Virus record (IMG/VR): IMGVR_UViG_3300029951_000007 | Reading direction: 5' to 3' (one strand) | DNA length: 64,000 nt | Origin: a virus | Part shown: positions 5,885-64,000 of the stretch, piece after piece | How the letters are laid out: every line of letters starts with the position of its first letter | Numbering within the stretch: position 1 is the first letter of the stretch | The notes under the pieces: model-generated | What the model was told of the DNA's origin: nothing | What the model saw: the letters and a program-made list of their open reading frames with translations, nothing else | The model's database searches: none | Position numbers and translations under genes: made by a program

Positions 5885-5983
5885 CTATCGGATTCCTTTC
5901 CAAGACAACGCCCTTGCGCCGCTTCGGTTGTGGTGCCTAGAACCACCGGGCGCAGGATACAAGTCACTGCGCCCGATCTTTGC

Positions 5984-6412: not shown

Positions 6413-6591
6413 CAAAACGTCGCGAAGTCCTTGACGGCGGAGGCCTCCATCACGACGTCGCCCTTGTCCATGACGACCTGGCCCACGGCCGCGTTGTCCT
6501 TGTAAAAGACGATTTCGCAGCCGACCTGCTTGTAGCAGTCGGCCTCCACGGTTAGCTCCTTGCCGCCCGCGTATATCCTGAACTTCTTCAT
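6412..6591 (-). CDS. hypothetical 59-aa protein
   Basis: Own translation: MKKFRIYAGGKELTVEADCYKQVGCEIVFYKDNAAVGQVVMDKGDVVMEASAVKDFATF. It falls below the track length cutoff and fills an otherwise empty gap. Confidence 0.4.
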   Translation of the reverse strand: MKKFRIYAGGKELTVEADCYKQVGCEIVFYKDNAAVGQVVMDKGDVVMEASAVKDFATF

Positions 6592-6592
6592 G

Positions 6593-6913
6593 TCAAATCT
6601 CCACTTCCGACTCCGGCAGGATGTCCGTCTCCTCCATCCAGATTACGTTCGTCTCGCTGTAAGGCACCGCCATGACGTCGCCCTCGTCGCTCTTCACGAA
6701 CGCCCACAGCAGGCGCTTGTTGGAGCTGAGAATGGCCTCCAGCACCTCGTCGTCTATCAGCATGCCGCGCCAATGGATGACGTCTCCGGCTTGTATCTCC
6801 ACCTGTCTGCGTTCGTCAGGCAACGTCTTACTACGGCGACGAATGCGCAGCGCCATAACACCCCTCTTGCGGGTCTTGCAGACCCGAGTCACGTACGGCA
6901 GGCGGTAGTTCAT
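6593..6913 (-). CDS. hypothetical protein (106 aa)
   Basis: Internal ATG (MNYRLPY...) of track ORF 6593..7204. It forms an ATGA overlap with the stop of the MuF-like gene. Confidence 0.5.
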   Translation of the reverse strand: MNYRLPYVTRVCKTRKRGVMALRIRRRSKTLPDERRQVEIQAGDVIHWRGMLIDDEVLEAILSSNKRLLWAFVKSDEGDVMAVPYSETNVIWMEETDILPESEVEI

Positions 6914-7800
6914 GCCGCCTCCGCGATGTCGCCGCTGGCCACTTGCTTGAACTGCGTGAGCGTCATTGTCTTGATGGAGCCGTTGCGGTAGACCCGGTGC
7001 GGCCAGCTGACGTCCGAGAACGCGAGCAACGGTATGATGAGGCACCTGCAGTTGAATATGTTGCCCGGCGCGTACTTTCCAAGCGGCTTCTCGTCGACTA
7101 GCGCCTCTGGATCCGGTAGGTCGCCCCACGAGCAAAGCACGCCGTTCAGGTTCTCGTGGCTGGCGCGGGTGCGCTGGTCGTGCGACGTCGCCCACTCGAA
7201 CCACTCGAGGTTCAGCGCCTCGGACCGCGCCCGGGTGAGCGCCGAACTGGCCTTCTGCGCCTCGGTCCTGGATATGAGCCGCGTCCTGGAGCGCAGCAGC
7301 TCGGGGAACCGCTTCTGGTACATCTTGGCAATCGTTGCCGGCCGAGCTCCGGCCTGCTGCGCCTTAGTGACTTCGTTGGTCAGTGTAGTGGCAGCTTCGA
7401 GTGGTAGGGAACTAATCAGCGAAGCATTCTCCCTGATCAGTTGCTGGACGCGTGCGCCCGTCGGGCCCCGCATCTCGGCCTCGAGCAGTTGATAAAGTTT
7501 GCCGGCTTGGCTCGACCTGCTGGCCGCCTCGCGCCAGGAGCGCCAGTTGGATTTCTGCGCGCCGTGGACCATGCGCGTGGCCAGCAGCTCACTAGCGGCC
7601 AGTATGTCTGGCATGCGGGAACGCAGAGCGAGCTCGTTCAGCCATTGACTGAACGTCTGCTCCGGCTTCTGCTTTACCAGTACGCGGCCGATGATCGCCT
7701 TGATGCCTTTCGCGTAACCGTGTTCTAGGCGCTGCGTGGCATGGAACTCTACCGGCGCCTTCTTGGCGGGATTCTTGCTCGTCTTTTTCATCGGGGGCAT
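6910..7800 (-). CDS. head morphogenesis protein, SPP1 gp7 / Mu F-like
   Basis: SHDQRTRASHENLNG and NIFNCRCL motifs are typical of the MuF/gp7 family. Confidence 0.8.
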   Translation of the reverse strand: MPPMKKTSKNPAKKAPVEFHATQRLEHGYAKGIKAIIGRVLVKQKPEQTFSQWLNELALRSRMPDILAASELLATRMVHGAQKSNWRSWREAASRSSQAGKLYQLLEAEMRGPTGARVQQLIRENASLISSLPLEAATTLTNEVTKAQQAGARPATIAKMYQKRFPELLRSRTRLISRTEAQKASSALTRARSEALNLEWFEWATSHDQRTRASHENLNGVLCSWGDLPDPEALVDEKPLGKYAPGNIFNCRCLIIPLLAFSDVSWPHRVYRNGSIKTMTLTQFKQVASGDIAEAA

Positions 7801-7806
7801 GGCGGT

Positions 7807-7974
7807 TCAGTCCGAGACGGCGATGATGGATCCGTCCGGCATGACCAGCACCTCGCGGTTGCGAGCGCCGCCGAGCACGGAGTTCAGCTCATGGGCCGTA
7901 TAGCGCCGCGACTTGCCGCCAACCAGTTTCTTGGCGGCGTACTTGTAGAGAAACAACCAGAATTTCTGCATCAT
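7807..7974 (-). CDS. hypothetical 55-aa protein
   Basis: Internal ATG (MMQKFW...) of the track ORF. It forms an ATGA overlap with the upstream stop. Confidence 0.35.
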   Translation of the reverse strand: MMQKFWLFLYKYAAKKLVGGKSRRYTAHELNSVLGGARNREVLVMPDGSIIAVSD

Positions 7975-8231
7975 ACAAGGTTCCTGGCGCTCCACTTCGG
8001 CGTCATCTGTTCTTTCCAGTTCTCTTTCGCCGACGTACAAGTGACTCCAAATCCAGTGGTATCGTCGTCGCCCTCGAACGTGAACACACCCGGCCACTCC
8101 TTGTAGACCACGCACGGATGGTCCGGGTCACCACTGTCGAGCGGGTCTACTTGGTCGGCAGGAGCGACAGGCGGCGCGGGTTTAGTGTGATGGAACCAGC
8201 TTGCGAACAGCAATACAGCGATTGGAAGCAT
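7971..8231 (-). CDS. small membrane protein
   Basis: MLPIAVLLFASWF reads as a TM segment, with GAGG upstream of the ATG at 8231. The track lists a longer version starting at 8330. Confidence 0.4.
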   Translation of the reverse strand: MLPIAVLLFASWFHHTKPAPPVAPADQVDPLDSGDPDHPCVVYKEWPGVFTFEGDDDTTGFGVTCTSAKENWKEQMTPKWSARNLV

Positions 8232-8304
8232 GGTCAGTACCTCGTGGACAGGAACCAAACTAGGAATGGGTACCAACGCGTCGTGGTCGCTGCGCACAGG
8301 AGGT

Positions 8305-9189
8305 TCACACTGGTGCGACGTCCTTCGCATACCCAGAATCTTTATGCGTCTTCTTCAACTTCTTGCTGACTAAGTCGTCAACAAACGACGCGCTGAACCC
8401 GTATTTCTTCACGATATTTGCCGGGGTCATTCCCTGCTCGAGCTCACGTTTGACCAGCTTGGCCGATCCAGCGTCGGTGTCGCGTTTCCAGGCGTCCTTC
8501 TCGGAGTCGGAGGCTTTCGCCGTGGTGAGCCGAGACTTCTCGGCCTTTAGAACGGCCGTAACCTTAGCGAGAGGAACGCCTTCAGACAGTGCTTTGCGCG
8601 CAATTACTTCGTACTTAGCCAGCGTGTCTTTCATAGTAGCGGCTGTCTTAACTTTTCCCAGAGCGCCTTCACTTACGGCCTTGATCTGCGCCTCGAAGGA
8701 CGCGGCATCTTCCGCCGGACGCTTGGAGCGTGGAATCACCTTCGCCATGGGCGCTACATTGGCCGGTGCCTTCTGTACGTCGTGGCGCGTGGAGCCTACT
8801 GGATTGACGGCGTCCTTCCCCTGAGCGGCGGAGGACTTCGCTTCTTCGGCCTTCTTGGCCACGTAGCGATCCAGGAAGGTGACGATGGGCTTCGCCTGCT
8901 TGGGCTTCTCGGCGTACTTGTACTCGTCTTTGGCGCTACCTTTTTCGTACTGGTTGACCCACTTGATCGCCGCCGCTTCACTGGGGAACCCGGTTTGTTC
9001 TTTGCCGTCTGGCAGCTTGACGTACGCACGTCCGCTGGGCATGGTGCGAATCTCACAAGATTTATACGGCATGCGTGCTTCGTCCCGCGCCGCCCTCGCG
9101 TCCAGAGCGGCGTCCAGCGCGCGGTGCAGCCGGGCCTTGCGGTCGTTGATTGTTCCCGGCCCATCACGTAGTACCGTCGGCTTGCCCAT
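8305..9189 (-). CDS. hypothetical 294-aa Lys/Ala-rich protein
   Basis: ATG at 9189 with an AAGGAG RBS. The track ORF extends upstream into the GIY-YIG gene, which is implausible. Confidence 0.55.
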   Translation of the reverse strand: MGKPTVLRDGPGTINDRKARLHRALDAALDARAARDEARMPYKSCEIRTMPSGRAYVKLPDGKEQTGFPSEAAAIKWVNQYEKGSAKDEYKYAEKPKQAKPIVTFLDRYVAKKAEEAKSSAAQGKDAVNPVGSTRHDVQKAPANVAPMAKVIPRSKRPAEDAASFEAQIKAVSEGALGKVKTAATMKDTLAKYEVIARKALSEGVPLAKVTAVLKAEKSRLTTAKASDSEKDAWKRDTDAGSAKLVKRELEQGMTPANIVKKYGFSASFVDDLVSKKLKKTHKDSGYAKDVAPV

Positions 9190-28877: not shown

Positions 28878-29021
28878 ATGAGAAACGAGCTGTATGAGCC
28901 GTACAAGATCGGCGCGGATTGGTACTTCGACTGCAGGGCCGGAAGGCGCGGACCGTTCGTGTCGGAGCAGCGTTGCGTAGAAGCGGCAGCGAGCAGGCAG
29001 GAAGCGGAGGAGATGGCGTGA
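28878..29021 (+). CDS. hypothetical 47-aa protein
   Basis: MRNELYEPYKIGADWYFDCRAGRRGPFVSEQ... with an AAGGAG RBS. Confidence 0.4.
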   Translation: MRNELYEPYKIGADWYFDCRAGRRGPFVSEQRCVEAAASRQEAEEMA

Positions 29022-29479
29022 CTATCCCAGAGTATTGCGCCGAGGAGGTGTGGCGACAGGGGCACAACCTCGGCGAACTGGACGGCGTGGAGCGCGTCGG
29101 CTGGATGCTGGACGCCTGGAGCTACATGATATACACCGGGCGGCACGCTAGGACGCTGCTGACGGAGGACGTCGTCGCGCTGGGCACACGCGTCGAGCGC
29201 TACAAGAACCGTCGCGGGCTGAGGACGTGCGAGGTGCGGGTGGGAAACTCCATTCCGCCGCGCGCCGTGGACGTTCCGAACCTGCTCGCGGACCTGCTGG
29301 CGCGGCAAGCGGAGCTCGCCCCGCTCGACTTCTACCGCCAGTTCGAGCTCATCCACCCGTTCGAGGACGGCAACGGGCGCGTGGGCAAGGTGCTGCTGAA
29401 CTGGAAGAACGGCACTTTGCTTAACGATCCCATATTCCCTCCGGGCGACTTCTGGGGGACGACGATCTTGAATCCGTAG
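29018..29479 (+). CDS. Fic/DOC-family protein
   Basis: HPFEDGNGRVGK matches the Fic core HxFx(D/E)GNGRxxR, with the last R replaced by K. GTG start in a GTGA overlap. Confidence 0.7.
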   Translation: MTIPEYCAEEVWRQGHNLGELDGVERVGWMLDAWSYMIYTGRHARTLLTEDVVALGTRVERYKNRRGLRTCEVRVGNSIPPRAVDVPNLLADLLARQAELAPLDFYRQFELIHPFEDGNGRVGKVLLNWKNGTLLNDPIFPPGDFWGTTILNP

Positions 29480-37200: not shown

Positions 37201-37553
37201 GCTTGAAAAGCGTGCGGTACTGCGACGAATGCGGAGCGGCCAAGACCATCGCCAACCATTGGTGGGCCGTCTCCAACACGGCGGAAGCGCCTCTGTTCAT
37301 GACCTCCAAGAGCGCCGACAAGCTGCTGCACAAGGACGCGTTCCGGCTGGATTACTGCAGCTACACCTGCGTCGGCACGGTGTTCAACCGCTGGCTGGAC
37401 ACTGGCTCCGTCGTCAAGAAGAAGCCGCGCCCGATCAAGGCGGTGGCCGTTGCCAAGGCGATAGAACCCGAACTCGACGAGACAGAGGAAGAGTACGCTC
37501 GGTTGCTTACACCGTCAGAGGTAGAAAAGGAAGCGTATGCAGCTGTTTATTGA
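37197..37553 (+). CDS. hypothetical zinc-ribbon protein
   Basis: ATGA overlap; YCDECG...CSYTC. Confidence 0.5.
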   Translation: MSLKSVRYCDECGAAKTIANHWWAVSNTAEAPLFMTSKSADKLLHKDAFRLDYCSYTCVGTVFNRWLDTGSVVKKKPRPIKAVAVAKAIEPELDETEEEYARLLTPSEVEKEAYAAVY

Positions 37554-38007
37554 TTGTGACGGTGTGTTAGCGGACTTCGATCAATACTTCATCGACCACT
37601 ACGGACGACATCCGACACTGGTGGAGGAAGAGCACGGCAGTAAACGACTGTGGCAAGATCTGCAGGACCATGAAGATTACTACTTCAAGCTGCCGCTCAT
37701 GCCGGACGCCATGGAGCTGTACGATAGCGTCAAGCATCTGAATCCGATCATTCTGACTGGAAGACCAGCAAGCGGACTATGGGCCGTGGATCAAAAGATT
37801 CGTTGGACGGCCAAGCATTTTCCAGGCGTACCGACCATCGTCTGTCTATCGCGTGACAAGTGCCATCACATGACCGCGCCTGGAGACATACTCGTGGATG
37901 ATCGGGTGAAGTACGCACCATTTTGGACTGACGCTGGCGGAGTGTTCGTTCATCACAAGTCGGCGGAAGCGACGATTGTTACACTAGAGAGGCTGGGTTT
38001 GCTGTGA
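37537..38007 (+). CDS. 5'(3')-deoxyribonucleotidase (HAD family)
   Basis: The N-terminal FIDCDGVLADF matches HAD motif I (DxDGV) as in the NT5C family. ILTGR and VDD motifs are also present. Confidence 0.7.
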   Translation: MQLFIDCDGVLADFDQYFIDHYGRHPTLVEEEHGSKRLWQDLQDHEDYYFKLPLMPDAMELYDSVKHLNPIILTGRPASGLWAVDQKIRWTAKHFPGVPTIVCLSRDKCHHMTAPGDILVDDRVKYAPFWTDAGGVFVHHKSAEATIVTLERLGLL

Positions 38008-40205: not shown

Positions 40206-40652
40206 ATGCAGACCTTCCTTCCCTACAAGTCGTTCGTCAAATCGGCCGCGTGCCTGGATAATAAGCGGTTGGGCAAGCAGCGCGTGGAAGCCTACCAGCT
40301 GCTGAACGCGCTGCTAGGCTTGACGCACAAGCCAGGATCCGCCGTGCGCAAAGGATGGACCAACCATCCGGCAGCGTTGATGTGGAAAGGCCATGAAGGC
40401 GTTTTGTACCAATACGCTTGCATTGTATGCGACGAGTGGAAGCGACGCGGATTCAAGAACGAGGCCATGGAGGCTAATCTTCTGCGGCTGTTCAACGTAG
40501 TCGCTGTGCGCTTGATAAAGACATCGACGAGTCCAACGTGGCTAGGTAGTAGGAAGTTCCATGCGTCGCATCGCAGCAATCTACTGCGGAAGGATGCAGC
40601 GTGGTATGGGAAGTTCAACTGGAAGGAGCCGGCAGACCTGGAGTACGTCTGA
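40206..40652 (+). CDS. conserved hypothetical, possibly pyrimidine-dimer DNA glycosylase (DenV/Pyr_excise)-like
   Basis: MQTFLPYKSFVKSAACLDNKRLGKQRVEAYQLL...WTNHPAALMW resembles the N-terminal LD..L..Q.RE pattern of that superfamily. This is from memory only. Confidence 0.4.
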   Translation: MQTFLPYKSFVKSAACLDNKRLGKQRVEAYQLLNALLGLTHKPGSAVRKGWTNHPAALMWKGHEGVLYQYACIVCDEWKRRGFKNEAMEANLLRLFNVVAVRLIKTSTSPTWLGSRKFHASHRSNLLRKDAAWYGKFNWKEPADLEYV

Positions 40653-40674: not shown

Positions 40675-41602
40675 ATGCCATTTGACGCAATGTACGACCA
40701 AGGAGTAGGTTTGAACCTGACGTCTAAGCCGCCTCTAGTAATACACCACAGTCCATGTCTTGACGGCTTCACCGCTGCGTGGGCCATGTGGCTGCAGTAC
40801 CCTGACGCCGAGTTCGTGCCGGGCGTGTACGGACAGGCTCCTCCGGATTGCACCGATCGTGACGTGTACCTGTTGGACTTCAGCTACAAGCTGGAAGTCA
40901 TCGACGCCATGCAGCGTGTCGCCAAGAGCATCACCATCTTGGACCACCACAAGACGGCCGAGAAGGACCTGTCCAATCTCTGGTCGCTGAACGACTGCAA
41001 AGGGGGTCACGAACGTGACGTGCATCTTCGACATGACCAAGTCCGGCGCGCGGTTGGCATGGGAGTGGTTCCATCCGCACACCGAGGTTCCCATGCTGGT
41101 CAGGGCAGTGGAGGACCGCGACCTGTGGCGCTTTTCTCTCGCGTACACCAAAGAACTAAACGCCGTATTGTTCAGCTACGACTACGACTTCAAAATATGG
41201 GGTTCCTTATCGCGACAAATGGAGTCTATTCCTGGTCTTGCCAGCATGCTGGAGGCCGGTCGAGCCATCCTTCGCAAGCAGGACAAGGACGTTCGCGAGC
41301 TTATCGGCATGACGAAGATGCGTCGTAGCATCGGCGGAATCATGGTGCCGTGTGCCAACATGCCGTATACGCTGGCCTCGGATGCAGCGAACTTGATGGC
41401 GGAGGGTAAGCCATTCGCCGCCACGTACTACAGCGACAAGGACGGCTTTGCGGTGTTCAGCCTGCGCTCCAGGGAGGATGGCGCTGACGTCAGCGAGATA
41501 GCCAAGAAGTACGGCGGAGGAGGCCACAAGCATGCCGCTGGGTTCCGCATCGAGTTGGTGAATCACATGCTCGGGTTGTACGACTATGAGAGGACAAAAT
41601 GA
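40675..41602 (+). pseudogene. DHH/DHHA1 phosphoesterase interrupted by +1 frameshift at an A3G5 run
   Basis: Frame A (40675..) carries HHSPCLDGFTAAWA, VYLLDFS and ILDHHKT. Frame B (..41602) carries DHHA1 GGGGHKHAAGF. The frames switch at AAAGGGGG (40999-41006), and deleting one G gives ...NDCKGVTNVTCIFDMTKSGA.... Confidence 0.65.
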
Positions 41603-46974: not shown

Positions 46975-47402
46975 TTCTATCGCGGCAAGATCTTATGAAG
47001 TACGTAGAGCGGGGTGCGCTACGGTTCGAGCCAGCATTGGCTGACGATCAGTTTCAGCAAAACGGCATTGACATGATTGTGAGTCAGGTGGAGAGCGACT
47101 TGTTGGCCGCAGGTGGATTCACGTTAGGTCGTACGCGCGAGATTATAACCATGCCTGACGACCTTATGGCGTTCGTGCAAATACGGTCCACTTGGGCGCG
47201 TATGGGCTTCATCATGCCACCGACTGTGATAGACGCTGGCTTCCAGGGCAGTATCACCCTGGAGATAGCCAAGTTCGGCGCGCCGGGTTACGTGCCTGTT
47301 GGACAGCGATTCGCCCACGTCATCTTCGCGAAGCTTACCAGCGCCACCGAGCCTTATCGCGGCAAGTACCAGGGCCAAGTGGCCATTACGGGGGCGCTGT
47401 AG
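46971..47402 (+). CDS. dCTP deaminase / dUTPase-fold enzyme
   Basis: The TTG start gives MILSRQDLMKYVERGALRFEP, the classic Dcd N-terminus. IDAGFQGSITLEI, GQRFAHVIF and YRGKYQGQ are also present. Confidence 0.65.
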   Translation: MILSRQDLMKYVERGALRFEPALADDQFQQNGIDMIVSQVESDLLAAGGFTLGRTREIITMPDDLMAFVQIRSTWARMGFIMPPTVIDAGFQGSITLEIAKFGAPGYVPVGQRFAHVIFAKLTSATEPYRGKYQGQVAITGAL

Positions 47403-49382
47403 ATGCCACGTGCGCCGCAGGTGATTCTCGCAGATTTTGAAACGAAGGGTATTCAGTCGCGGCCAAAGTACCCACCGAAGCCGGGTTCGCTCGCTCTTAA
47501 GTGGCCCGATCAGTCAGATTACAAACTCATGGCATGGGGTCATGGGGATGGAACGCGTGCGTTCGACAACAATTGCACAGAGAAGGAAGCGCGCGGCGAG
47601 CTCAAGAAGGCACAGGAAAGCAAGTATCCAGTGCTTTGGCAGAACGAGAAATTCGATCTGGACGTCGCCGAAATACATTGGGAACTACCAATCCCGGATT
47701 GGCGGAAGCGTCACGATACTATGTATCTTCTCTTCCTCGAGAACCCTCATGCTCCGTCTCTAGCGTTGAAGGAATCGGCCCAGCGCATACTAGGGATTGC
47801 GCCTGAGGAGCAGGACAAGCTGAAGGAGTGGATCCTAGCCAACATCGAGGCGGCGCGTAAGAAGCCCAGCACATGGGGTGCGTATATCTGCGAAGCGCCT
47901 TATCGAATTGTCAAGCCCTACCACAAAGGCGATCTCACGCGCATGGGTCGGTTGTTCAATAAGATCTACCCGTATATCGTCGAGTCCGGAATGCTGGAAG
48001 CGTATCAACGTGAATTGAAGCTCATGCCAATACTGCTGGAGAACGAGCGGGTGGGGATGCGCGTGGACATGAATGGCCTAGAGCGTGACTTGCCGGCGAT
48101 GATAGCTGGCGTAGAGAAGACCGATGTCTGGCTGCGCAAGAAGCTGGGTATTGAGAACATCGACAGTGATCGGCAGCTTGGCGAGGCGCTTTACAATAAA
48201 GGAATCGTAAGCGACTTTAAGAAGACAGCCAAGGGCCATCTGTCGGTGAGTAAGAAGACACTTACGTTGAATAAGTTCAAAGACCCGAAGGTGTATCAAG
48301 CCCTGCAGTATCGCGGTCAGATGAGTACGTCCATCTCGATGTTTATCAAGCCTTGGTTGGAACTTGGTACAGCCGGCAAGGGTACCATTCACCCTAACTG
48401 GTCGCAGGTGCGCAGTCCGAAGGGTAACAACGATACAGGAGGAGCGCGCAGCGGTCGCATCATTTGCTCAAAGCCTAACTTCTTAAATATTCCGAAGAAA
48501 TGGAAGCGCGCAGCTTCTGCCGGTTACGTCCATCCAGCATTCTTGAAGGTTCCAGAATTGCCGTACGTACGTAGTTACTGCTTACCGGATAAGGGTCAGC
48601 GGTGGGGCAAAAGGGATTTCGATCAACAAGAATTGAGATTGTTCGGCCACTTTGAAGAAGGACCCGTTATGGCAGGTTTCTTATCTGCCCAAATAGATTT
48701 GCCATGCTCTAAGTGCGGCGCACCTGTAGGTAAACAATGCGTTGGTGGCAAATTTCACGCAGAACGCAAATACGACATCCATGAACTGGTGCGTGCAGAA
48801 GTAGAACGGCGTTTGATTGAAGCGTGTTTACGCGAAGGATTCGACCGTGACACTGCCAAGAGTTGCGTGTTCGGTCGTCTGTATGGCCAGGGTATAACCG
48901 GCCTGATGCAGCTTCTACAGCTACTAGATGAAGAGAAGCCTATTGCGCAGATCATCCAGGCTTCTATCAACGCGGCTGTGCCATCGATCAAGGAACTGGA
49001 CAATCGTTTGAAGGCGCTCTCGGATGAAGGCTTGCCGATTCGCACGTTTGGGTCACGTCTGTACTATTGTGAAGAGCCGAAGTACAGTCCTCTGTATGGC
49101 AGAGACATGACATTTTCATATAAACTTCTCAACTACCTCATGCAAGGTAGCGGAGCTGATGTAACGAAAGAAACATTGATACGTTATAACGAAGCCAAGA
49201 AGAATAGCAGATTCGTCGTCACTGTGTATGACGAAGTTAATTTCAGTGCACCTGCTAAAGCAATGAAAGAAGAACAGAAAATAATGCAAGATTGTATGCG
49301 TAGTATCGCCACCGACGTTCCCATGTTGTCGGAAGGCGAATCTGGTGTTAATTGGGGGACTTTGACAAAATGGCAGGATTAA
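47403..49382 (+). CDS. family A DNA polymerase with 3'-5' exonuclease domain
   Basis: ADFETKG (Exo I), DFDQQELRL (motif A), RDTAKSCVFGRLYGQG (motif B) and VTVYDEVNF (motif C). Confidence 0.9.
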   Translation: MPRAPQVILADFETKGIQSRPKYPPKPGSLALKWPDQSDYKLMAWGHGDGTRAFDNNCTEKEARGELKKAQESKYPVLWQNEKFDLDVAEIHWELPIPDWRKRHDTMYLLFLENPHAPSLALKESAQRILGIAPEEQDKLKEWILANIEAARKKPSTWGAYICEAPYRIVKPYHKGDLTRMGRLFNKIYPYIVESGMLEAYQRELKLMPILLENERVGMRVDMNGLERDLPAMIAGVEKTDVWLRKKLGIENIDSDRQLGEALYNKGIVSDFKKTAKGHLSVSKKTLTLNKFKDPKVYQALQYRGQMSTSISMFIKPWLELGTAGKGTIHPNWSQVRSPKGNNDTGGARSGRIICSKPNFLNIPKKWKRAASAGYVHPAFLKVPELPYVRSYCLPDKGQRWGKRDFDQQELRLFGHFEEGPVMAGFLSAQIDLPCSKCGAPVGKQCVGGKFHAERKYDIHELVRAEVERRLIEACLREGFDRDTAKSCVFGRLYGQGITGLMQLLQLLDEEKPIAQIIQASINAAVPSIKELDNRLKALSDEGLPIRTFGSRLYYCEEPKYSPLYGRDMTFSYKLLNYLMQGSGADVTKETLIRYNEAKKNSRFVVTVYDEVNFSAPAKAMKEEQKIMQDCMRSIATDVPMLSEGESGVNWGTLTKWQD

Positions 49383-57625: not shown

Positions 57626-57781
57626 ATGCCACAGTCCATGCAACAGAAGCGCAAGAACTCCCTCGAACTTCTCAAGTCAGCACTCATCAGCCGCATCGCG
57701 CAGGAAGAGTTCAAGAAGGCTGAGAACCTCGCCCGCATGATCCAGTTCACCGAAGCCGCCATCGCGAAGGGTGGACGCTAA
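57626..57781 (+). CDS. hypothetical 51-aa helical protein
   Basis: Own translation MPQSMQQKRKNSLELLKSALISRIAQEEFKKAEN... with a TAAGGAGAA RBS. Confidence 0.4.
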   Translation: MPQSMQQKRKNSLELLKSALISRIAQEEFKKAENLARMIQFTEAAIAKGGR

Positions 57782-57782
57782 C

Positions 57783-59342
57783 ATGGCAAAGTCAATCCTG
57801 AAGAACATCAAGGCAGCACCGAGCGCGAAAGCTGTCAAGGCTGTTGGCAAGAAGTTGATCAAGACGGCTAAGGGCGAAACAGTCGTAGCCACGCACGACA
57901 TCCACAATAAGTCGCTCGCTCCCACCGCGCCCGTAACGCCGCTGACTCAGGCGTTCGTCAAGGCCGGATTCGTATACAGCCGCACTGAGGAGGTAGATAA
58001 CAATACCGCTCATGGCTATACACGCGAAGACGGTGCGGCGCTTCTATTCACGCACGCTGGCAGTTCGTCCAGCATCAACACCGCGTGGCAGGTGAAGTTT
58101 GCGGACGGCTCCACGGCTGAAGGCAAGAACGCTCAGCAATTCGTAAAGACCATGTACGACGCTAAGGGACCGGCTCCGTTACCTAGCAACGTCGTGGCCG
58201 CGCTGGACGCGCTACGTAAGCTGACGGCTGGCAAGTATCGCATCAGCGATCTGGCTGGCGACGCCAACTACAAGGCGCGCGTGCAGCTTCTGAAGCTGCT
58301 ACGTAAGACTGACAAGGTACTGGTCAAGGAGAGCGGCGTCAACAAAGTGCTGACCGAGTTCTACGTCGCGCTCGGCATCGCGAAGTCGTCCGTGGCCGGT
58401 ATGGAGTCGGCATTCAGCGCGAAGTGCATGGAGCTCGCGAAGAGTGCCAGCAAGACGGAGCGCGCGGTAGCGAAGGTAGAGAAGGCTGTAATCGCTGACG
58501 AGCTTCGGAAGACGGTACACACCCGCGTCGTATTCGATGGCAAGCCGATCCTGGACGCGCCCAAGAAGATGAACAAGAAGCAAGAAGCCAAGGACAGCGC
58601 CGATTTCAAGCTGGAACTGGCGGCACGAGTCAAGCGTGCGGAGCGCGAAACGGCGAACATGCCAATGGCGCAGCCGAAGTCGGATGCTGATATCTACGTC
58701 AACCTGGACGAGATATTCCTGCTGGAAGATCCCAATAATGGTATCGTTTTGCTACAGTTGGAAAAACCCAATTCGCAGGGCGCGATTTGCGTGTATAATA
58801 ACGGGAGTCGCGTTGCTGCCGGAGTAGTACCGACAGAAGTTCTGAGAACACTGCGTCAGATCACAAGTAGCGATCTAGTGAGAGACGTAAATCAGTTACT
58901 ACACCCCATTACGGCTGGAGTTGTAGTTTCGTCCGTGGCTGAACGCCACCTTACAGCGGTGTTAGATCACTGCAAGGAGAACATCATGACCACTGCAACC
59001 GTTGAAACCAAGAAGCAGAAATTCGCACCTCCCGCTGGAACAGCCAAGAAGACCGCGAAGAACGCTGTCACGACCAAGGTCAAGGCAACCGTAACCAAGA
59101 AGGCCGACAAGGCACCGCGCGCCGCAGCCGCCGATCGCAAGATCAAGGCGTTAGTAACGTTGAAGTCGGAGTCGTTGCCCCGCGAAGGCAGCTTCTGCTA
59201 CGGTCAAGTTGAGGCCATCATCGGCTCCAAGACCGTGAGCGAGGCTCAGGCCAAGCTGGACAAGTCCAAGCTGAATCCCAGCGGTCGCAAGCTGGAAGTG
59301 GCGTGGCTGGTGAAGCAGGGCTACCTGTCCGTCATCGAGTAG
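57783..59342 (+). CDS. hypothetical 519-aa protein with Lys-rich (histone-H1-like) segment
   Basis: ATG at 57783. KKTAKNAVTTKVKATVTKKADKAPRAAAADRK is a basic low-complexity region. Confidence 0.6.
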   Translation: MAKSILKNIKAAPSAKAVKAVGKKLIKTAKGETVVATHDIHNKSLAPTAPVTPLTQAFVKAGFVYSRTEEVDNNTAHGYTREDGAALLFTHAGSSSSINTAWQVKFADGSTAEGKNAQQFVKTMYDAKGPAPLPSNVVAALDALRKLTAGKYRISDLAGDANYKARVQLLKLLRKTDKVLVKESGVNKVLTEFYVALGIAKSSVAGMESAFSAKCMELAKSASKTERAVAKVEKAVIADELRKTVHTRVVFDGKPILDAPKKMNKKQEAKDSADFKLELAARVKRAERETANMPMAQPKSDADIYVNLDEIFLLEDPNNGIVLLQLEKPNSQGAICVYNNGSRVAAGVVPTEVLRTLRQITSSDLVRDVNQLLHPITAGVVVSSVAERHLTAVLDHCKENIMTTATVETKKQKFAPPAGTAKKTAKNAVTTKVKATVTKKADKAPRAAAADRKIKALVTLKSESLPREGSFCYGQVEAIIGSKTVSEAQAKLDKSKLNPSGRKLEVAWLVKQGYLSVIE

Positions 59343-59408: not shown

Positions 59409-59603
59409 ATGCCTACCTCTCTAGCTCGTCGTATCCGCCGCATTGGCATCCTGCCTTCCATAACCGTTGACGGCGTTACGAAGCGTCGCTTCGAGGAAAT
59501 GAGCTCGTCTGCTCGTTCTAAGATGGAAGACGCCATACGAGCCGAACGAGCGCCGCGTCATGCGAAGTTTCTGGCGGCGCGCAAGTCGGCTAGAAGCAAG
59601 TAA
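59409..59603 (+). CDS. hypothetical basic protein
   Basis: Track ORF. Confidence 0.45.
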   Translation: MPTSLARRIRRIGILPSITVDGVTKRRFEEMSSSARSKMEDAIRAERAPRHAKFLAARKSARSK

Positions 59604-59635
59604 ACCACTACAGATAGCCTGAACACGAAGAGTAT

Positions 59636-59667
59636 GAGACGCCCAGAACATCGGGCGTCTTTGTATT
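59636..59667 (+). terminator. rho-independent terminator
   Basis: Stem AGACGCCC/GGGCGTCT (8 bp, 8-nt loop) followed by TTGTATTT. Confidence 0.55.
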
Positions 59668-59689
59668 TCCCCGGGTGTCTTAGACGCCT

Positions 59690-60613
59690 TTGCCACGTAA
59701 GAGGAGAACGATCCTGAAAAACCTAACACTCATCATCCCCACGCACGGTCGTGTTAACAAGCAGATAACGCTCCAGGCGCTGCCGACTGCGCTCCAGGCC
59801 GAGGTCATCCTCGTGGCTTCGTTGCCTGACGAAGCCAAGGCGCTGAAGAAGCTGTACCCGGCTAACCAAGTGCTTACAGCCAAGGGCACTACATCCATCG
59901 CTACGAAGCGTCACTGGATTATGAAGAACGTAGCCGGCAAGTTTCTATTTATGATGGACGACGACCTGGCGTTCTTCGAGCGCTGCCCGGCTAAGTGGCG
60001 CGTGTGGGAGGAGCATCGCAAGGCGTACGCCGTAGCTCCGGACGCACCGGCTGGAACCTCGCTGATGATGCGTCGCTATCCTAAGGACAAGGTCCTCTTG
60101 AAGCTATTCCAGGAGATGGATTCCTACGCTGGTAAAGAGCACGACCTCGGTATGATCGGCATCGCGCATCGGCGTCACTCTGACAAGAAGAAAGCGGCGT
60201 GGGAGAAGAACGCAAGGATGATGTATGCTTTCGGTGTCAACCGAGAGCTCTATCTCAAAGAGAAGATTCGCTTCGACGCCATAGGTCTGCGCGAGGACTT
60301 CCACGTGGTGTTGTCCATGTTGCGTAAAGGCCATGAGTGCCACAACTACGTCGAGCTACTCAACAACGAGTACGGCACATTCGGCGCGGCGGGAGGGTGC
60401 AGCGGCGAGCGCAGTATGGAGTACAGCGACGCCCAGTGCTTCGAGTTGGCCAAGCTACACCCCGGCTTCGTGAAGGTGGTGGACCGCGCGTACACCACGA
60501 CGGCTGTGCGTAAGGAGGTCGTGGTAGCCTGGAAGAAGGCTTACCTCTCCTCTCTGGCTCAGCCCAAGGTTCCAAGCGTACGGAAGGCAGCAAAGAAAGC
60601 GGTGACGGCATGA
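59690..60613 (+). CDS. GT-A fold (GT2-like) glycosyl/phospho-group transferase
   Basis: LTLIIPTHGR is a typical GT-A N-terminal strand and FLFMMDDDLAFF a DxD motif. The start codon is uncertain: the track uses the TTG at 59690, and a GAGGAGA RBS precedes a CTG at ~59715. Confidence 0.6.
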   Translation: MPRKRRTILKNLTLIIPTHGRVNKQITLQALPTALQAEVILVASLPDEAKALKKLYPANQVLTAKGTTSIATKRHWIMKNVAGKFLFMMDDDLAFFERCPAKWRVWEEHRKAYAVAPDAPAGTSLMMRRYPKDKVLLKLFQEMDSYAGKEHDLGMIGIAHRRHSDKKKAAWEKNARMMYAFGVNRELYLKEKIRFDAIGLREDFHVVLSMLRKGHECHNYVELLNNEYGTFGAAGGCSGERSMEYSDAQCFELAKLHPGFVKVVDRAYTTTAVRKEVVVAWKKAYLSSLAQPKVPSVRKAAKKAVTA

Positions 60614-60777
60614 AGTGCGAAAATTGCAAGAAGAAGTGTGCGAATCGGTTCTGTAACCTTGGCTGCTTCAACCGGTGGGTGCGGCGTGGTAATCGCAAAC
60701 TGGTGGAGGACGCGCACAAGAGCGGCACGGAGGATTACCGCGTCGTCGTACGGAAGATGATGGGAGGCACGGCGTGA
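60610..60777 (+). CDS. 55-aa zinc-ribbon protein
   Basis: Own translation MKCENCKKKCANRFCNLGCFNRWVRRG.... An ATGA overlap lies upstream and a GTGA overlap downstream. Confidence 0.4.
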   Translation: MKCENCKKKCANRFCNLGCFNRWVRRGNRKLVEDAHKSGTEDYRVVVRKMMGGTA

Positions 60778-61511
60778 TCATTCACCACAAGATTCAGCGC
60801 AACAGCGGAGCAGCCCTAGAGCCGTGTATCTATAAGAGTGGCCATGGTGTGCCGACGCAAGGCGCTAAGATGCGCGCCTATCCGGACGTATTTGTGCCGG
60901 TGCTAGGTATAACGACTGGCGGCTACGTCATGCCGGTAATGGGCGAACCATCGCCGGTACTGGACCTGCCGTTGGCGCTGGCCCGGTTGGCTGCTTTATG
61001 GGACCTGCCGGTGGCGCATGTCTACGATTATGAGGGCCGCCGTCGCCACCACGTAGTCCAAGTAGAGCCGTTCACTCGCACAGAAGGCTTTCCGCCTATT
61101 ATCCGGTCGGCGCTGACGACGTGGTACGAACGAATTGGTAGTACGCAAAGCAAAGGAGCACAGGTCGTACATGGTGATCCCACCCTGGAGAACTACGTAC
61201 GCGACGGTTATTGGCTAGACCCTAGTACGCGTCCATTGCCACAAGAGGCCGAGCTTGACGGCGGCAAGCTGCTGCAGTCGTACTTCCACTACGGTCGCCC
61301 TTGCCTGGAGTCGGAACGTTACATGATACGTAAGTTCTTGGTCGAGCAAAAATTGAACCTGGACCTCTGTATCTACTACATGCTGACGCACATCATTCGG
61401 CTGTATGGTGTGCAGCCGCAGGCGCGTGTATGGGCCATTGACGTCGTATCGGGCCTGCGTAATTTGGCGGAAGAACTTCGCACGGAAATGAGAGTGGATG
61501 CATGCAAGTAG
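60774..61511 (+). CDS. protein-kinase-like fold small-molecule kinase (APH / choline-kinase-like)
   Basis: VVHGDPTLENYV is the catalytic-loop HGDxxxxN and YWLDPS the metal-binding D. Confidence 0.6.
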   Translation: MIIHHKIQRNSGAALEPCIYKSGHGVPTQGAKMRAYPDVFVPVLGITTGGYVMPVMGEPSPVLDLPLALARLAALWDLPVAHVYDYEGRRRHHVVQVEPFTRTEGFPPIIRSALTTWYERIGSTQSKGAQVVHGDPTLENYVRDGYWLDPSTRPLPQEAELDGGKLLQSYFHYGRPCLESERYMIRKFLVEQKLNLDLCIYYMLTHIIRLYGVQPQARVWAIDVVSGLRNLAEELRTEMRVDACK

Positions 61512-62221
61512 TTATTCTGGCGGCAGGACGCGGTGAACGATTTGTCAGTAACGGGGTAATGACGCCTAAACCGCTGCTCCCAGCGCGCGGTCGCACGATG
61601 ATACAGCATGCGCTGGTCCAGGCGTCTGAAATCATCAAGACGCCTGTCGTTGTGTGCTTGGTGGATTTGTACAGTGAGCTTCACAAGCAAACGCCGAAGA
61701 ACATGCATCCGATCCGCGTGCCCATTCGGTTCGTGCAGAAGGGTGCGGCCATGTCTTTGTTGGCGGCGTCAGGTGTGATTCGCGATACCGATCCGGTGCT
61801 GGTCATGGACTGTGACACCATCTTCAAGAGTGGTGTGCTTGCTAAGTTCTCTGAGTTTAGTGAGGCTTGCTTCAAGTCTGGCGTGCAGTCTTCTATGCTG
61901 TGCTTCCGTCCTAAGGATGACAGCGAGCGCTACAGTTTCGTTATCATGAAGGATCACTTAGTGACGCAGGTGGTGGAGAAGCAGCGCATAAGCGGTATTG
62001 CTTCTTGCGGCGTTCATGCATTCCAGTCGTGGGAGCTTGCCAAGCGCGCCATCTACGAGATGGTGATTCTCAGTACGATGACTAACGGTGAGTACTATCT
62101 GGCACCGTGCCACAACAATTTGCAGTTGACCACGGCCATGGTGATCGCAGCCGATGAATTCAACCACGTAGGCACACCGGCTGAACTGGAGGCGTATGAG
62201 CAAGCAGTTCCCAAGGCTTGA
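61502..62221 (+). CDS. sugar-/alcohol-phosphate nucleotidyltransferase
   Basis: MQVVILAAGRGERF (LAAGxGxR), PKPLLP and an LVMDCD acidic motif. Size and pattern resemble the RmlA/GlmU-N/LicC class. Confidence 0.75.
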   Translation: MQVVILAAGRGERFVSNGVMTPKPLLPARGRTMIQHALVQASEIIKTPVVVCLVDLYSELHKQTPKNMHPIRVPIRFVQKGAAMSLLAASGVIRDTDPVLVMDCDTIFKSGVLAKFSEFSEACFKSGVQSSMLCFRPKDDSERYSFVIMKDHLVTQVVEKQRISGIASCGVHAFQSWELAKRAIYEMVILSTMTNGEYYLAPCHNNLQLTTAMVIAADEFNHVGTPAELEAYEQAVPKA

Positions 62222-63068
62222 AGAGTTCGTGTACTTCGTGAACGAGCGTTGGTCCATACATCAGAAGCGATTGGCTGGGAAGCCTGCTCCGTGGACGAAG
62301 GATCCTATCCTGTTGGAATACCGCTTTACCAACGTACGTCGCGAAGACGACAGGGTCACTAAGTGTATACACGAAAACTGGTTACAGCCGCACGCGGAGG
62401 ACTACGACACGGTAGTCTTCGCAATGGCGCTGGCACGGTTGGTGAACTTGCCGGCGAGCCTGGAAGCGCTCGGTTATCCATCAAAATGGAATCCGAAGCG
62501 GTTTGTGAAGCTGATGGAGGCGCGCAAGAAGGACGGCATGGCGACGTTCACAGGGGCATACATGATAAACGCCGTCGGTGCTACCAAAGGACAGTCCAAG
62601 GCGTCGTACTTGGCCGACCAGGTGCTTGGGCCGTTGTGGAACAGCCGTAAGCTGCTAGGTAACTTGGTGCGTACCGGGTGTGAGCTTAGTACGTTGCAAG
62701 AAGCGCTCATGTTACATCACGGCTTCGGAGGTGGGTTCATGAGTGCGCAGGTCGTGGCGGATATTAAGCACCTGCCTTCTATGAAGAAGGCTGAAGACTG
62801 GATGACGTTCGCAATGTCAGGGCCAGGAAGTCGTAGAGGGTTAAACTGGCTCGTGGGAAGAGAACCAACTGCGCGCTGGAACGAAGAGGAATGGCATGCT
62901 ACGCTGCTGGATTTGATGAAGGTAGCTCAGCCAAAGTTGAAATGCCCAGTGTTGGATGCGCAGAATCTACAGAACTGTCTGTGTGAATTCAGCAAATACT
63001 GCAAGGTGAAGTACAACGGCGGCAGAGCGAAGCAGAAGTTCCGCGCCAGCGGCGAAGCTTATAATTAA
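62196..63068 (+). CDS. aGPT-Pplase-like / 5-hmdU-DNA-kinase-associated helical domain protein (DNA base hypermodification family)
   Basis: NERWSIHQKRLAGKPAPWTKDPILLEYRFTNVRREDDRVT matches my memory of the PWT.DPIL..YRF.NV.RE.D..T signature of that family. The protein looks all-alpha and is 290 aa. Confidence 0.55.
   Translation: MSKQFPRLEEFVYFVNERWSIHQKRLAGKPAPWTKDPILLEYRFTNVRREDDRVTKCIHENWLQPHAEDYDTVVFAMALARLVNLPASLEALGYPSKWNPKRFVKLMEARKKDGMATFTGAYMINAVGATKGQSKASYLADQVLGPLWNSRKLLGNLVRTGCELSTLQEALMLHHGFGGGFMSAQVVADIKHLPSMKKAEDWMTFAMSGPGSRRGLNWLVGREPTARWNEEEWHATLLDLMKVAQPKLKCPVLDAQNLQNCLCEFSKYCKVKYNGGRAKQKFRASGEAYN
63060..63065 (+). promoter_or_regulatory. TATAAT box, recurrent motif
   Basis: AAGCTTATAATTAACCC overlaps the stop of 62196..63068, 28 nt before the ATG at 63094. 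Confidence 0.4.
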
Positions 63069-63093
63069 CCCATAGCAGCGAAAGGAAGTGAAG

Positions 63094-64000
63094 ATGTACA
63101 GTTACAAAGCTAGAGACGTAAATGAGGCGCTTTCACTTGGACTACAGCATTTGTTACACAGTGGAATCAAAGAGGACTCCAGAGTAGGTCCAGTGCTAGT
63201 AGCGCCAGGGCCGGTGTGTATCGAGTATACCGACCCAAGGCAGCGAGTGCTGTATTCACCAACGCGCGATGCGAACCACGTATTCCATGTGATGGAGGCG
63301 TTGTGGTTTTTCTCGGGGAGCAACGAACTGGAGTTTCCGGTTTTCTTTAATGCCTCATACTCGCAGTTTTCAGATGATGGCAAGACTATGTGGGACTCTT
63401 ACGGATGGCGCTGGCGAGAATTCTTCGGCTATGACCAGCTCGATGCCATAGTGGAGGAGCTCAAGTCGAATCCGGGAAGCAGGCGCTGCGTATTGGCGAT
63501 GTGGAACGCTGATATTGCGCCAAGCGCCCCGCAATGGGAGGCGAAAAGTGGCGTACAGTACAGCGATGATCTTGGCGTTGCGTGCAACGGTGGTAAAGCC
63601 GTTCCGTGCAACACGCACGCTTACTTCGCCATACGAGCCGGCAAGCTGAACATGACCGTCATGAACCGCAGCAACGACAGTATGTGGGGCGCATTCGGCG
63701 CGAACGCGGTCCACTTCAGCTTCCTGTTGGAGTACATGGCGATGCGTATCGGTGTGCCGATGGGCAGTTACTATCAGTTCACGAACAATCTGCATACGTA
63801 TACCGACAAGTTCAGTATTGACAAGCTGAACGCCATTGAATACGAGTGCGTTACGCTCGATCAGTTGGAACCTCTTGGACCCTCTATCACAGAAGGATTC
63901 GACGACGACCTGAAGCTGTTCATGCCGTGGGCGCTGAAGGTGATACGTGCCACCCCACCGCCGGCAACGTTCCCGTCAGACGTATTACCAGAAGCTACGC
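63094..64000 (+). CDS. divergent thymidylate-synthase (ThyA)-fold enzyme, candidate dUMP hydroxymethylase (3' end beyond window)
   Basis: Own translation from the ATG at 63094 stays open to the window end. GSRRCVLAMWN, VPCNTHAYFAIRAGKLNMTVMNRSND, GANAVHFSFLLEYMA and NNLHTY align with ThyA SRRIIVSAWN, PCHAFFQFYV..GKLSCQLYQRSCD, PFNIASYALL and GDTHLY. Confidence 0.75.
   Translation, partial: MYSYKARDVNEALSLGLQHLLHSGIKEDSRVGPVLVAPGPVCIEYTDPRQRVLYSPTRDANHVFHVMEALWFFSGSNELEFPVFFNASYSQFSDDGKTMWDSYGWRWREFFGYDQLDAIVEELKSNPGSRRCVLAMWNADIAPSAPQWEAKSGVQYSDDLGVACNGGKAVPCNTHAYFAIRAGKLNMTVMNRSNDSMWGAFGANAVHFSFLLEYMAMRIGVPMGSYYQFTNNLHTYTDKFSIDKLNAIEYECVTLDQLEPLGPSITEGFDDDLKLFMPWALKVIRATPPPATFPSDVLPEAT

Follow-up and report, generated by a model that had tools for sequence, protein, structure and literature searches.

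In the 64,000-nucleotide (nt) window analyzed here, which is the first 64 kb of a ~97-kb contig of an uncultured tailed phage from soil (JGI 3300028879, Ga0302229_10000053; IMG/VR record IMGVR_UViG_3300029951_000007), a cluster of co-oriented genes close to the window end appears to constitute a thymidine-hypermodification operon. We estimate a probability of about 0.6 that 5-hydroxymethyldeoxyuridine (5-hmdU) is made in this phage before replication and is then O-glycosylated on the DNA by a glycosyltransferase of the TAGT family using a phage-activated sugar. The evidence consists of the families and folds of the gene products, their diagnostic residues and the conserved linkage of their genes, all of which were observed as described below. 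In total, 73 kb of the ~97-kb genome were read (the window and its continuation up to 73 kb), and the same genome was present as contigs of ~100 kb in other samples. The features of the cluster are the following.

59636–59667, + strand: terminator-like hairpin followed by a T-rich tail, at the end of the preceding transcription unit
59690–60613, + strand: TAGT-family GT-A glycosyltransferase, predicted DNA (5-hmdU) glycosyltransferase (Pfam PF20691, phrog_842)
60610–60777, + strand: Cys-rich Zn-ribbon-like protein of 55 amino acids (aa) (position in relatives; fusion in relative P0015)
60774–61511, + strand: small-molecule kinase of the aminoglycoside phosphotransferase (APH)/choline-kinase fold (AlphaFold2 model, Foldseek, conserved residues)
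61502–62221, + strand: sugar-1-phosphate-type nucleotidyltransferase (X-1-P + nucleoside triphosphate -> nucleoside diphosphate (NDP)-X; PF12804, PF00483)
62196–63068, + strand: aGPT-Pplase of clade 1 (Pfam HMUDK_hel), all-helical, hereafter Pplase1 (PF18723, AlphaFold2 model)
63094–64000, on to 64185, + strand: ThyA-superfamily enzyme, predicted dUMP 5-hydroxymethylase (PF00303, phrog_5131)
64182–64760, co-oriented, outside the window after ThyA: HD YfbR-like 5′-deoxynucleotidase
64714–64998, co-oriented, outside the window after the HD nucleotidase: DUF3310 protein

The cluster is preceded by the hairpin, whose 9-bp stem (59636–59661; six G-C pairs, 8-nt loop) is followed by the T-rich tail TGTATTTCCC. 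Five complete open reading frames (ORFs) of 307, 55, 245, 239 and 290 aa follow on the + strand, and a sixth frame is open from ATG 63094 past the window end; the latter gene ends at 64185 (363 aa, full length from sequence L004). Stop and start codons overlap in ATGA at 60610, in GTGA at 60774, by 10 nt at 61502/61511 and by 26 nt at 62196/62221, and a gap of 25 nt that includes GAAAGGAAG lies between the Pplase1 and ThyA genes. An earlier reading made from the letters alone (the original prediction) had described these ORFs, the four overlaps and a series of motifs, all of which were recovered at the same coordinates or in the translations. It had counted six genes; the operon comprises eight, with two more beyond the window end. 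Five of the six products encoded in the window gave significant family or fold matches, and the sixth, the 55-aa Zn-ribbon-like protein, belongs to no family, though its place in the cluster is conserved among relatives. When the cluster (59600–64000) was compared with 50,697 phage records by megablast, a single match of 96 bp was obtained.

The first gene product (59690–60613) matched Pfam PF20691 (TAGT) at 1.1e-14 with 55.3 bits (cut-off 27.5) over profile positions 3–205 of 205, and phrog_842, the T-even ‘beta-glucosyl-HMC-alpha-glucosyltransferase’, at 2.6e-43, whereas its match to the generic GT2 family remained under the cut-off. Apparent hallmarks of the GT-A fold, LTLIIPTHGR at residues 12–21 and the DDD (DxD) in MMDDDLAF, were recognized in the translation and are both kept in relatives, to which the protein is 72–76% identical; its identity to ORF237 of Ralstonia phage RSL1 is 37%. 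TAGT members include the T6-type second glucosyltransferase, which acts on DNA (PMC13390438), and phage GT-A glycosyltransferases were shown to glycosylate 5-hydroxymethylcytosine (5hmC) in DNA (bioRxiv 10.1101/2023.12.21.572611). TAGT genes adjoin ThyA homologues in at least five lineages, and the predicted sugar transfer to a hydroxylated base in DNA is supported by the genomic context.

Two start options were seen for this glycosyltransferase at 59690–59716, a rare CTG behind the strong Shine-Dalgarno sequence AAGAGGAG or the upstream TTG 59690. The start codons of four relatives (ATG, GTG or TTG) align with CTG 59714, 7 nt downstream of AAGAGGAG, and judged from this alignment the true start is likely CTG 59714 behind that ribosome-binding site, not TTG 59690. 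The start chosen by the metagenome gene caller (59813) would remove the conserved IIPTHGR strand.

The ThyA homologue (63094–64185) matched PF00303 at 3.2e-18 and phrog_5131 at 1e-88, while all thymidylate synthase equivalog models of NCBIfam scored far under their cut-offs. In E. coli numbering it retains C146, N177 and D169 and has Ala in place of L143. The same C/N/D pattern is common to the ThyA homologues of Yuavirus, RSL1 and LuckyBarnes, in all three of which position 143 is Asp; in T4 gp42 and RB69 gp48 the equivalent of position 177 is Asp, one alignment column earlier, and RB69 gp48 has Asn at 169. Asn177 serves as the criterion for dUMP specificity and D169N as the signature of 5-hydroxy-dCMP (5hodCMP) synthases (PMC13326640), and a small or acidic residue at position 143 is expected for hydroxymethylases, in place of the bulky Leu of methyl-forming enzymes. 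Its identity is 47% to RSL1 ORF230 and 38% to the ThyA homologue of Yuavirus, a protein annotated as dUMP hydroxymethylase. By this residue pattern the enzyme is predicted to be a dUMP hydroxymethylase, and the functions of dCMP hydroxymethylase, 5hodCMP synthase and true thymidylate synthase were each rejected on residue grounds. Where the original prediction had allowed a modified T or C, Asn177 and Asp169 speak for T and against C.

For the protein encoded at 60774–61511, nothing was found by sequence in Pfam, NCBIfam, PHROG (E up to 0.1), the PDB (phmmer) or 50,697 phage records (tblastn). Its AlphaFold2 model, built on a 16-sequence alignment, has a bilobal kinase fold (predicted local distance difference test (pLDDT) 91.8, predicted template modelling score (pTM) 0.88), for which Foldseek returned choline kinase, APH(3′)-IIb, LicA and fructosamine-3-kinase in the PDB with probability 1.0 and template modelling (TM) scores of 0.5–0.63. 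Against BFVD, the second-best viral match was ORF052c (gp52) of RB69 (E 4.9e-4), the closest characterised viral fold neighbour. The modelled protein may thus be placed in the APH/choline-kinase group at the level of fold, its sequence falling outside Pfam APH (PF01636) and Choline_kinase (PF01633). Among 62 family members, K21, H133 and G134 do not vary, and D135, N140 and D149 are kept in at least 90%; these residues correspond to the Lys that binds ATP, the catalytic loop HGDxxxxN and the Asp that binds metal. When 1.84 billion representatives were searched with a profile, ~279 relatives of 200–270 aa were obtained, and the ten distant ones whose clusters were looked up are metagenomic proteins, none of them with a functional name. 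This unannotated and apparently virus-borne family of ~279 sequence clusters tracks with DNA-glycosylation genes, and the window member is predicted to be an anomeric sugar kinase (X -> X-1-P). The preceding 55-aa protein had no match in Pfam, PHROG or NCBIfam; a small ORF occupies its position in relative L007, and the kinase of relative P0015 carries a fused Cys-rich extension at its N-terminus, so the 55-aa protein is probably an accessory or N-terminal module of the kinase.

The nucleotidyltransferase (61502–62221) exceeded the cut-offs of both PF12804 (NTP_transf_3; 6.8e-14, 52.8 bits, cut-off 27) and PF00483 (NTP_transferase; 2.7e-10, 40.7 bits, cut-off 21.2), and the motifs AAGRGERF and PKPLL provide the G-x-G-x-R ... 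K signature. Partial NCBIfam matches were obtained to the GlmU N-terminal domain, MurU, AglF and RmlA; all of them scored far under the equivalog cut-offs, the best being Arch_glmU with 66.7 bits against 292. Further matches were to phrog_3980 (N-terminal half, 8.7e-33), to RSL1 ORF235 (1e-20, 30% identity) and, in the PDB, to 4evw and MurU 4y7t. The kinase and nucleotidyltransferase genes are paired by overlap or adjacency in several lineages.

The product of 62196–63068 matched PF18723 at 1.9e-41 with 142.7 bits (cut-off 25) over profile positions 4–276 of 281. Its AlphaFold2 model consists entirely of helices (pLDDT 95.9), and the sole fold match above noise was the clade 2 protein Pplase2/PUGT 8z2n (probability 0.89, TM 0.44). 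Pplase1 is 33% identical to both Yuavirus ORF86 and RSL1 ORF231; proteins of clade 1 occur in at least 376 deposited phage genomes, and in the index of the assembly collection the exact window protein occurs in 108 blocks. C263, E264 and K267, near the C-terminus, are invariant in 57 homologues, and the local Cys motif resembles that at Cys247 of Pplase2, the catalytic residue of that enzyme (PMC11472151). An hhalign comparison of the Pplase1 profile with YuA gp10 (Pplase2) was not significant, so the relationship consists of the fold match and the local motif. We also observed that YuA gp14 shares the LCEF.KY motif with clade 1, and such a Cys-Glu-x-x-Lys is unexpected for a purely structural ‘helical domain’.

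Two more specific assignments of Pplase1 were rejected. As a P-loop 5-hmdU DNA kinase (5-HMUDK; M6 gp54, YuA gp13) it would not fit, being an all-helical protein of 290 aa with no P-loop match, and no significant homology was found to the clade 2 amino-acid:DNA transferases (M6 gp51/YuA gp10/PaMx11 gp46). The Pfam name ‘HMUDK_hel’ probably reflects SP10 gp186, in which a P-loop 5-HMUDK is fused to a PF18723-type domain (PMC5889632, Table 3). In the in vitro reconstitution of the M6 pathway, the clade 1 Pplase was dispensable (PMC8989533). We infer that Pplase1 recognises or flips 5-hmU in DNA to assist modification, possibly via covalent Cys chemistry; a role in recognition or catalysis is suggested by its constant partnership with ThyA in both amino-acid and sugar pathways, by the SP10 fusion to 5-HMUDK and by the conserved Cys-Glu.

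These family assignments agree with what had been guessed from motifs in the original prediction, namely a GT-A transferase, an APH/choline-kinase-like kinase, a nucleotidyltransferase, an aGPT-Pplase for the helical protein and a ThyA-fold enzyme; in particular, profile searches placed 62196–63068 well inside the aGPT-Pplase family. The conserved co-occurrence that it had named as a check was also found, both in close relatives and in unrelated phages. Close relatives carry all eight genes in the same order, with 42–76% identity per protein. In RSL1, ORF230–238 comprise a glycosyltransferase (GT), an APH-domain protein, a nucleotidyltransferase, two further GTs, a sulfotransferase, Pplase1 and ThyA. 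Other versions were found in PhiJL001 (Pplase1, TAGT, Nmad5, ThyA, HD), LuckyBarnes (ThyA, two GTs, Pplase1) and the Manatee Spring myovirus MW202897 (TAGT, ThyA, HD, DUF3310), as well as in the metagenomic loci L024 (Pplase1, two TAGTs, kinase, ThyA, HD), L018 (ThyA, kinase, nucleotidyltransferase) and L023 (kinase, nucleotidyltransferase, GT2). Four metagenomic contigs in all have a distant homologue of the kinase in the neighbourhood of TAGT or another GT-A glycosyltransferase, nucleotidyltransferase, ThyA and/or Pplase1. This recurrence argues that the genes belong to DNA modification and not to surface glycans, an alternative made less likely by the company that the kinase family keeps with ThyA and TAGT across several phage lineages unrelated to one another. 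In L018 (Logan ERR4450733_30336, 4114–8680), ThyA, kinase and nucleotidyltransferase are followed by a 403-aa protein, a PP-binding (acyl-carrier-like) protein, a dCMP deaminase and PolA, a series that hints at a different, carrier-protein-dependent base modification.

Three further products encoded upstream in the window enter the proposed pathway.

37537–38007, + strand: NT5C-type 5′(3′)-deoxyribonucleotidase, HAD superfamily (PF06941, 1.1e-08)
46995–47402, + strand: dCTP deaminase/dUTPase-family protein (PF22769 DCD, 3.6e-18; PF00692 dUTPase, 4.4e-06)
47403–49382, + strand: family A DNA polymerase (PolA), which would have to incorporate 5-hmdUTP (phrog_17, 1e-56; PF00476)

In the pathway that we propose, the substrates, the order of steps, 5-hmU as acceptor and the part of Pplase1 are inferred. 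Before replication, the ThyA homologue would convert dUMP to 5-hydroxymethyl-dUMP. The dCTP deaminase/dUTPase-family protein, whose gene lies directly upstream of PolA, likely supplies dUMP or dUTP, and the HD nucleotidase and possibly the NT5C-type nucleotidase would deplete the dTMP/dTTP pool; such pool-remodelling enzymes were described in other thymidine-hypermodifying phages (PMC13458397). Host kinases would then form 5hmdUTP, and the phage PolA would incorporate 5-hmdU in place of T. In parallel, the APH-fold kinase may phosphorylate a free sugar, the anomeric carbon being the most likely site, and the translationally coupled nucleotidyltransferase would turn the sugar-1-phosphate into an NDP-sugar. 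After replication, the TAGT would move the sugar onto the 5-hydroxymethyl oxygen of 5-hmdU in DNA, and the resulting O-glycosylated thymine analogue, similar to base J, would protect the phage genome against restriction. This scheme leaves Pplase1 unexplained.

Thymidine hypermodification clusters have been described in the Pseudomonas phages M6, YuA and PaMx11 and in Salmonella phage ViI (Lee et al. 2018, PMC5889632; Lee et al. 2021, PMC8989533). M6/YuA-type clusters, of which that of M6 was experimentally characterised, run in the order Pplase2, pyridoxal-phosphate (PLP) enzyme, radical S-adenosylmethionine (SAM) enzyme, P-loop 5-HMUDK, Pplase1, Nmad protein, ThyA, HD nucleotidase and DUF3310. 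The window operon shares with them Pplase1, ThyA, HD nucleotidase and DUF3310 in the same order and, by prediction, the synthesis of 5-hmdU before replication with tailoring on the DNA afterwards, whereas TAGT, Zn-ribbon protein, APH-fold kinase and nucleotidyltransferase replace Pplase2, PLP enzyme, radical SAM enzyme and 5-HMUDK, and the predicted product is O-glycosylated in place of aminoalkylated.

The combination of genes had been regarded as previously undescribed in the original prediction, a claim that appears overstated. The same set in the same order was found in RSL1, the TAGT-Pplase1-ThyA core recurs in PhiJL001 and LuckyBarnes, GT-A homologues next to ThyA homologues, sometimes with APH phosphotransferases, were surveyed by Pyle et al. 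(bioRxiv 10.1101/2023.12.21.572611), and donor activation by AfhE has been characterised (PMC13326640). In RSL1, the TAGT (37%), APH-domain protein, nucleotidyltransferase (30%), Pplase1 (33%) and ThyA (47%) correspond to the window operon in the same order. Unlike the window, the RSL1 cluster (L001, NC_010811.2, 165261–171498) has a sulfotransferase (ORF232, PF03567, 4e-21), an APS-kinase-like P-loop protein (ORF238) and three TAGT-like glycosyltransferases, which suggest a longer glycan and that RSL1 DNA may carry a sulfated oligosaccharide. Its APH domain lies in a 477-aa protein with no detectable sequence similarity to the window kinase, and the phage is a 231-kb jumbo myovirus whose other genes are unrelated to those of the window phage. 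No report of RSL1 DNA chemistry was found in the literature searched.

Donor activation is best compared with the AfhE/AfhF arabinosyl-5-hydroxycytosine pathway of RB69, DLP3 and HY126, in which a fused nucleotidyltransferase and APH-like kinase makes UDP-arabinose (PMC13326640). In both cases, in the window phage by prediction, a ThyA-superfamily enzyme makes the acceptor mononucleotide, phage-encoded enzymes supply the NDP-sugar and glycosyltransferases act on DNA, and the window kinase model matches RB69 gp52, the kinase half of the AfhE-type enzyme. The two differ in the base, which is cytosine in the RB69 type (N177D, D169N) whereas the window residues point to dUMP; in architecture, the window enzymes being separate with the kinase first and the RB69-type enzymes fused with the nucleotidyltransferase N-terminal and the kinase C-terminal; in the glycosyltransferases, which are GT-B-like there and GT-A (TAGT) here; and in the arabinose-5-phosphate isomerase and HAD phosphatase that the RB69 type needs, neither of which is in the window operon. 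The window kinase, nucleotidyltransferase and NT5C-like protein showed no significant sequence similarity to their RB69 counterparts, the kinase match being at the level of fold and motif; the kinase and nucleotidyltransferase work like AfhE in the proposed pathway but are not AfhE members. The NT5C-like protein was also considered as an AfhF-type sugar phosphatase and rejected, with no significant similarity to RB69 gp51. In L024 (JGI 3300047552, Ga0485239_002003, 5886–6317), a HAD phosphatase motif below threshold was seen at the N-terminus of the product encoded next after the kinase, which recalls the AfhF step.

Other glycosylated DNAs share single elements with the window. TET-linked TAGT/GT-A enzymes belong to the same PF20691 and the same PHROG (Pyle et al., bioRxiv 10.1101/2023.12.21.572611; PMC13390438), but the acceptor of the characterised members is 5hmC or glucosyl-5hmC made after replication by a methyltransferase and a dioxygenase, whereas 5-hmdU made before replication is predicted here. 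Base J is the same chemical type as the predicted product, an O-glycosylated 5-hydroxymethyluracil in DNA formed via a GT-A-fold enzyme; it differs in that a dioxygenase oxidises a small fraction of T in DNA, the donor is cellular UDP-glucose and the role is regulatory, whereas the window 5-hmU would come from the nucleotide pool, the donor would be phage-activated and the role would presumably be anti-restriction. SP-15, YerA41 and Carin-5 likewise have sugar-decorated thymines, with glycosyltransferase and nucleotidyltransferase genes near replication genes, but they have a (di)hydroxypentyl linker with phosphate and a PolA fused to uracil-DNA glycosylase (UDG), and no Pplase1/TAGT module was reported for them (PMC12686479).

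The same genes could also be read as a phosphate-dependent route, which we consider unlikely: the APH-fold kinase, in place of a 5-HMUDK, would phosphorylate 5-hmdU in DNA, the nucleotidyltransferase and/or Pplase1 would transfer a group at the C5-methylene, TAGT would act later, and an SP-15-like thymine with a sugar-phosphate or otherwise linked hypermodification would result. Pplase1 is the only fold relative of Pplase2, the Cys-dependent 5-phosphomethyldeoxyuridine (5-PmdU) transferase, carries its invariant Cys-Glu in a similar motif, and corresponds to the domain type fused to 5-HMUDK in SP10 gp186. No homologue of the M6/YuA tailoring genes (Pplase2, PLP enzyme, radical SAM enzyme, P-loop 5-HMUDK) was found in the window or in 52–73 kb, where tblastn with YuA gp13 and YuA gp10 also gave nothing significant, and the phosphate- and sugar-bearing thymidines of SP-15, YerA41 and Carin-5 are of unexplained biosynthesis (PMC12686479). 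Set against this are LuckyBarnes and PhiJL001, in which Pplase1, TAGT and ThyA occur with no kinase homologue detected in the examined regions, indicating that Pplase1 is independent of the kinase. In addition, the overlap or adjacency of the kinase and nucleotidyltransferase genes in several lineages is characteristic of enzymes that act in succession on a small molecule, the known substrates of APH-fold kinases are small molecules and not DNA bases, and Pplase1 was dispensable in the M6 reconstitution (PMC8989533). It seems quite unlikely that the Cys-Glu Pplase1 and the APH-fold kinase would together constitute a P-loop-independent activation of the C5-hydroxymethyl group, giving a phosphodiester- or otherwise non-glycosidically linked sugar on thymine; if true, it would be a new chemistry class of DNA hypermodification and the first assigned function for clade 1 Pplases.

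A glycan or protein target in place of DNA was weighed as well, with the kinase, nucleotidyltransferase and GT-A acting on a LicA/LicC-like surface glycan or on a virion or host protein as mere neighbours of a plain 5-hmdU (or other) module. The top PDB fold matches of the kinase do include LicA and choline kinases, LicC-type cytidylyltransferases share the nucleotidyltransferase fold, and ~65% of contigs with phage GT-A/GT-B homologues have no neighbouring base-modification gene (bioRxiv 10.1101/2023.12.21.572611). We nevertheless regard such a target as very unlikely, as the glycosyltransferase exceeds the Pfam cut-off for TAGT and not that for generic GT2, the genes form a translationally coupled operon together with Pplase1 and ThyA within the replication module, at least five lineages have a kinase of this family beside ThyA, TAGT and Pplase1, and a LicD-like or membrane-associated transferase is absent. 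Glycosylation of a cytosine derivative, 5hmC or 5-hydroxycytosine, as in T-even/RB69-type phages would accord with MilA, a CMP hydroxymethylase, ranking first when the ThyA homologue was compared by sequence with the PDB, with the hmC derivatives used by characterised TAGT members and with the RB69 cytosine pathway as the source of the closest characterised viral fold neighbour of the kinase. It is rendered similarly remote by Asn177, as in dUMP enzymes, and by Asp169 in place of the Asn of 5hodCMP synthases (PMC13326640), by the 38% identity to the ThyA homologue of Yuavirus, the DNA of whose member M6 carries a 5-hmdU derivative (PMC5889632), by Pplase1, Nmad5-type neighbours and a dCTP-deaminase-family gene, which accompany thymidine pathways, and by the lack of any dCTPase among the genes seen. 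That the DNA is unmodified, with a true thymidylate synthase and unrelated morons serving ordinary nucleotide metabolism, is hardly credible: the Pfam match is to the thymidylate synthase family and deposited relatives are annotated ‘thymidylate synthase’, but the curated equivalog models scored far under their cut-offs, position 143 is not the bulky Leu, and tight linkage with Pplase1 and TAGT recurs.

Several points weigh against the O-glycosylation of 5-hmdU that we favour. The assignment to dUMP depends on a single diagnostic residue together with the context. In the literature searched, no TAGT member was reported to act on 5-hmU, and the characterised ones use 5hmC or glucosyl-5hmC. At the sequence level, no homology of the kinase to a characterised sugar kinase was detected, and its fold neighbours are led by choline and aminoglycoside kinases; the analogy with AfhE is limited to fold and architecture because the nucleotidyltransferase has no significant sequence similarity to RB69 gp53. 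The Cys-Glu resembles the catalytic motif of Pplase2, and therefore Pplase1 may catalyse a step that the proposed pathway omits. The search for a P-loop 5-HMUDK and a Pplase2 covered the genome up to 73 kb, and either of them is unlikely in the further ~24 kb (73–97 kb) because that block looks structural. Finally, the phage is known from metagenomes alone.

All parts of the operon are of known kinds, and what is proposed is a well-supported prediction, short of a system of a wholly new category; the module has been present, with piecemeal annotation, in genomes deposited from the 2000s onward. The literature searched contained no chemical or biochemical characterisation of a TAGT and dUMP-hydroxymethylase pathway or of the window kinase family, nor any report of O-glycosylated 5-hmdU in a bacterial virus. 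If the prediction is true, no bacterial virus would have been reported earlier with an O-glycosylated 5-hydroxymethyluracil, an analogue of base J, and one pre-replicative 5-hmdU ‘chassis’ (ThyA homologue, Pplase1, HD nucleotidase) would accept either an amino-acid or a sugar tailoring module, which sharpens the question of the role of clade 1 aGPT-Pplases. Since the same module is present in the cultured phages RSL1, PhiJL001 and LuckyBarnes, the idea is directly testable. DNA of the predicted type resists restriction enzymes and can bias sequencing, and the enzymes could serve for 5hmU labelling.

The flagged cluster closes a long + strand block with genes for a primase, a ligase, the dCTP-deaminase-family protein, PolA and an SNF2 helicase, and terminase and portal genes lie in the first 16 kb on the minus strand. 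Directly upstream of the cluster, a 523-aa protein (57771–59342, + strand) had no Pfam or PHROG match, and relatives also have a large unannotated protein (519–678 aa) at that position. The early region on the + strand encodes a Fic-domain protein (29018–29479), a T4 endonuclease-V-like Pyr_excise glycosylase (40206–40652) and a DHHA1-domain protein (41015–41602); a pyrimidine-dimer DNA glycosylase is of note in a phage predicted to carry hmU-derived DNA. The 818-aa portal (3428–5884, − strand) has a C-terminal domain of ~140 aa (residues ~675–813) that matches minor-head, DarB-like and other large virion-protein PHROGs and may be a portal-fused ejected or decoration domain.

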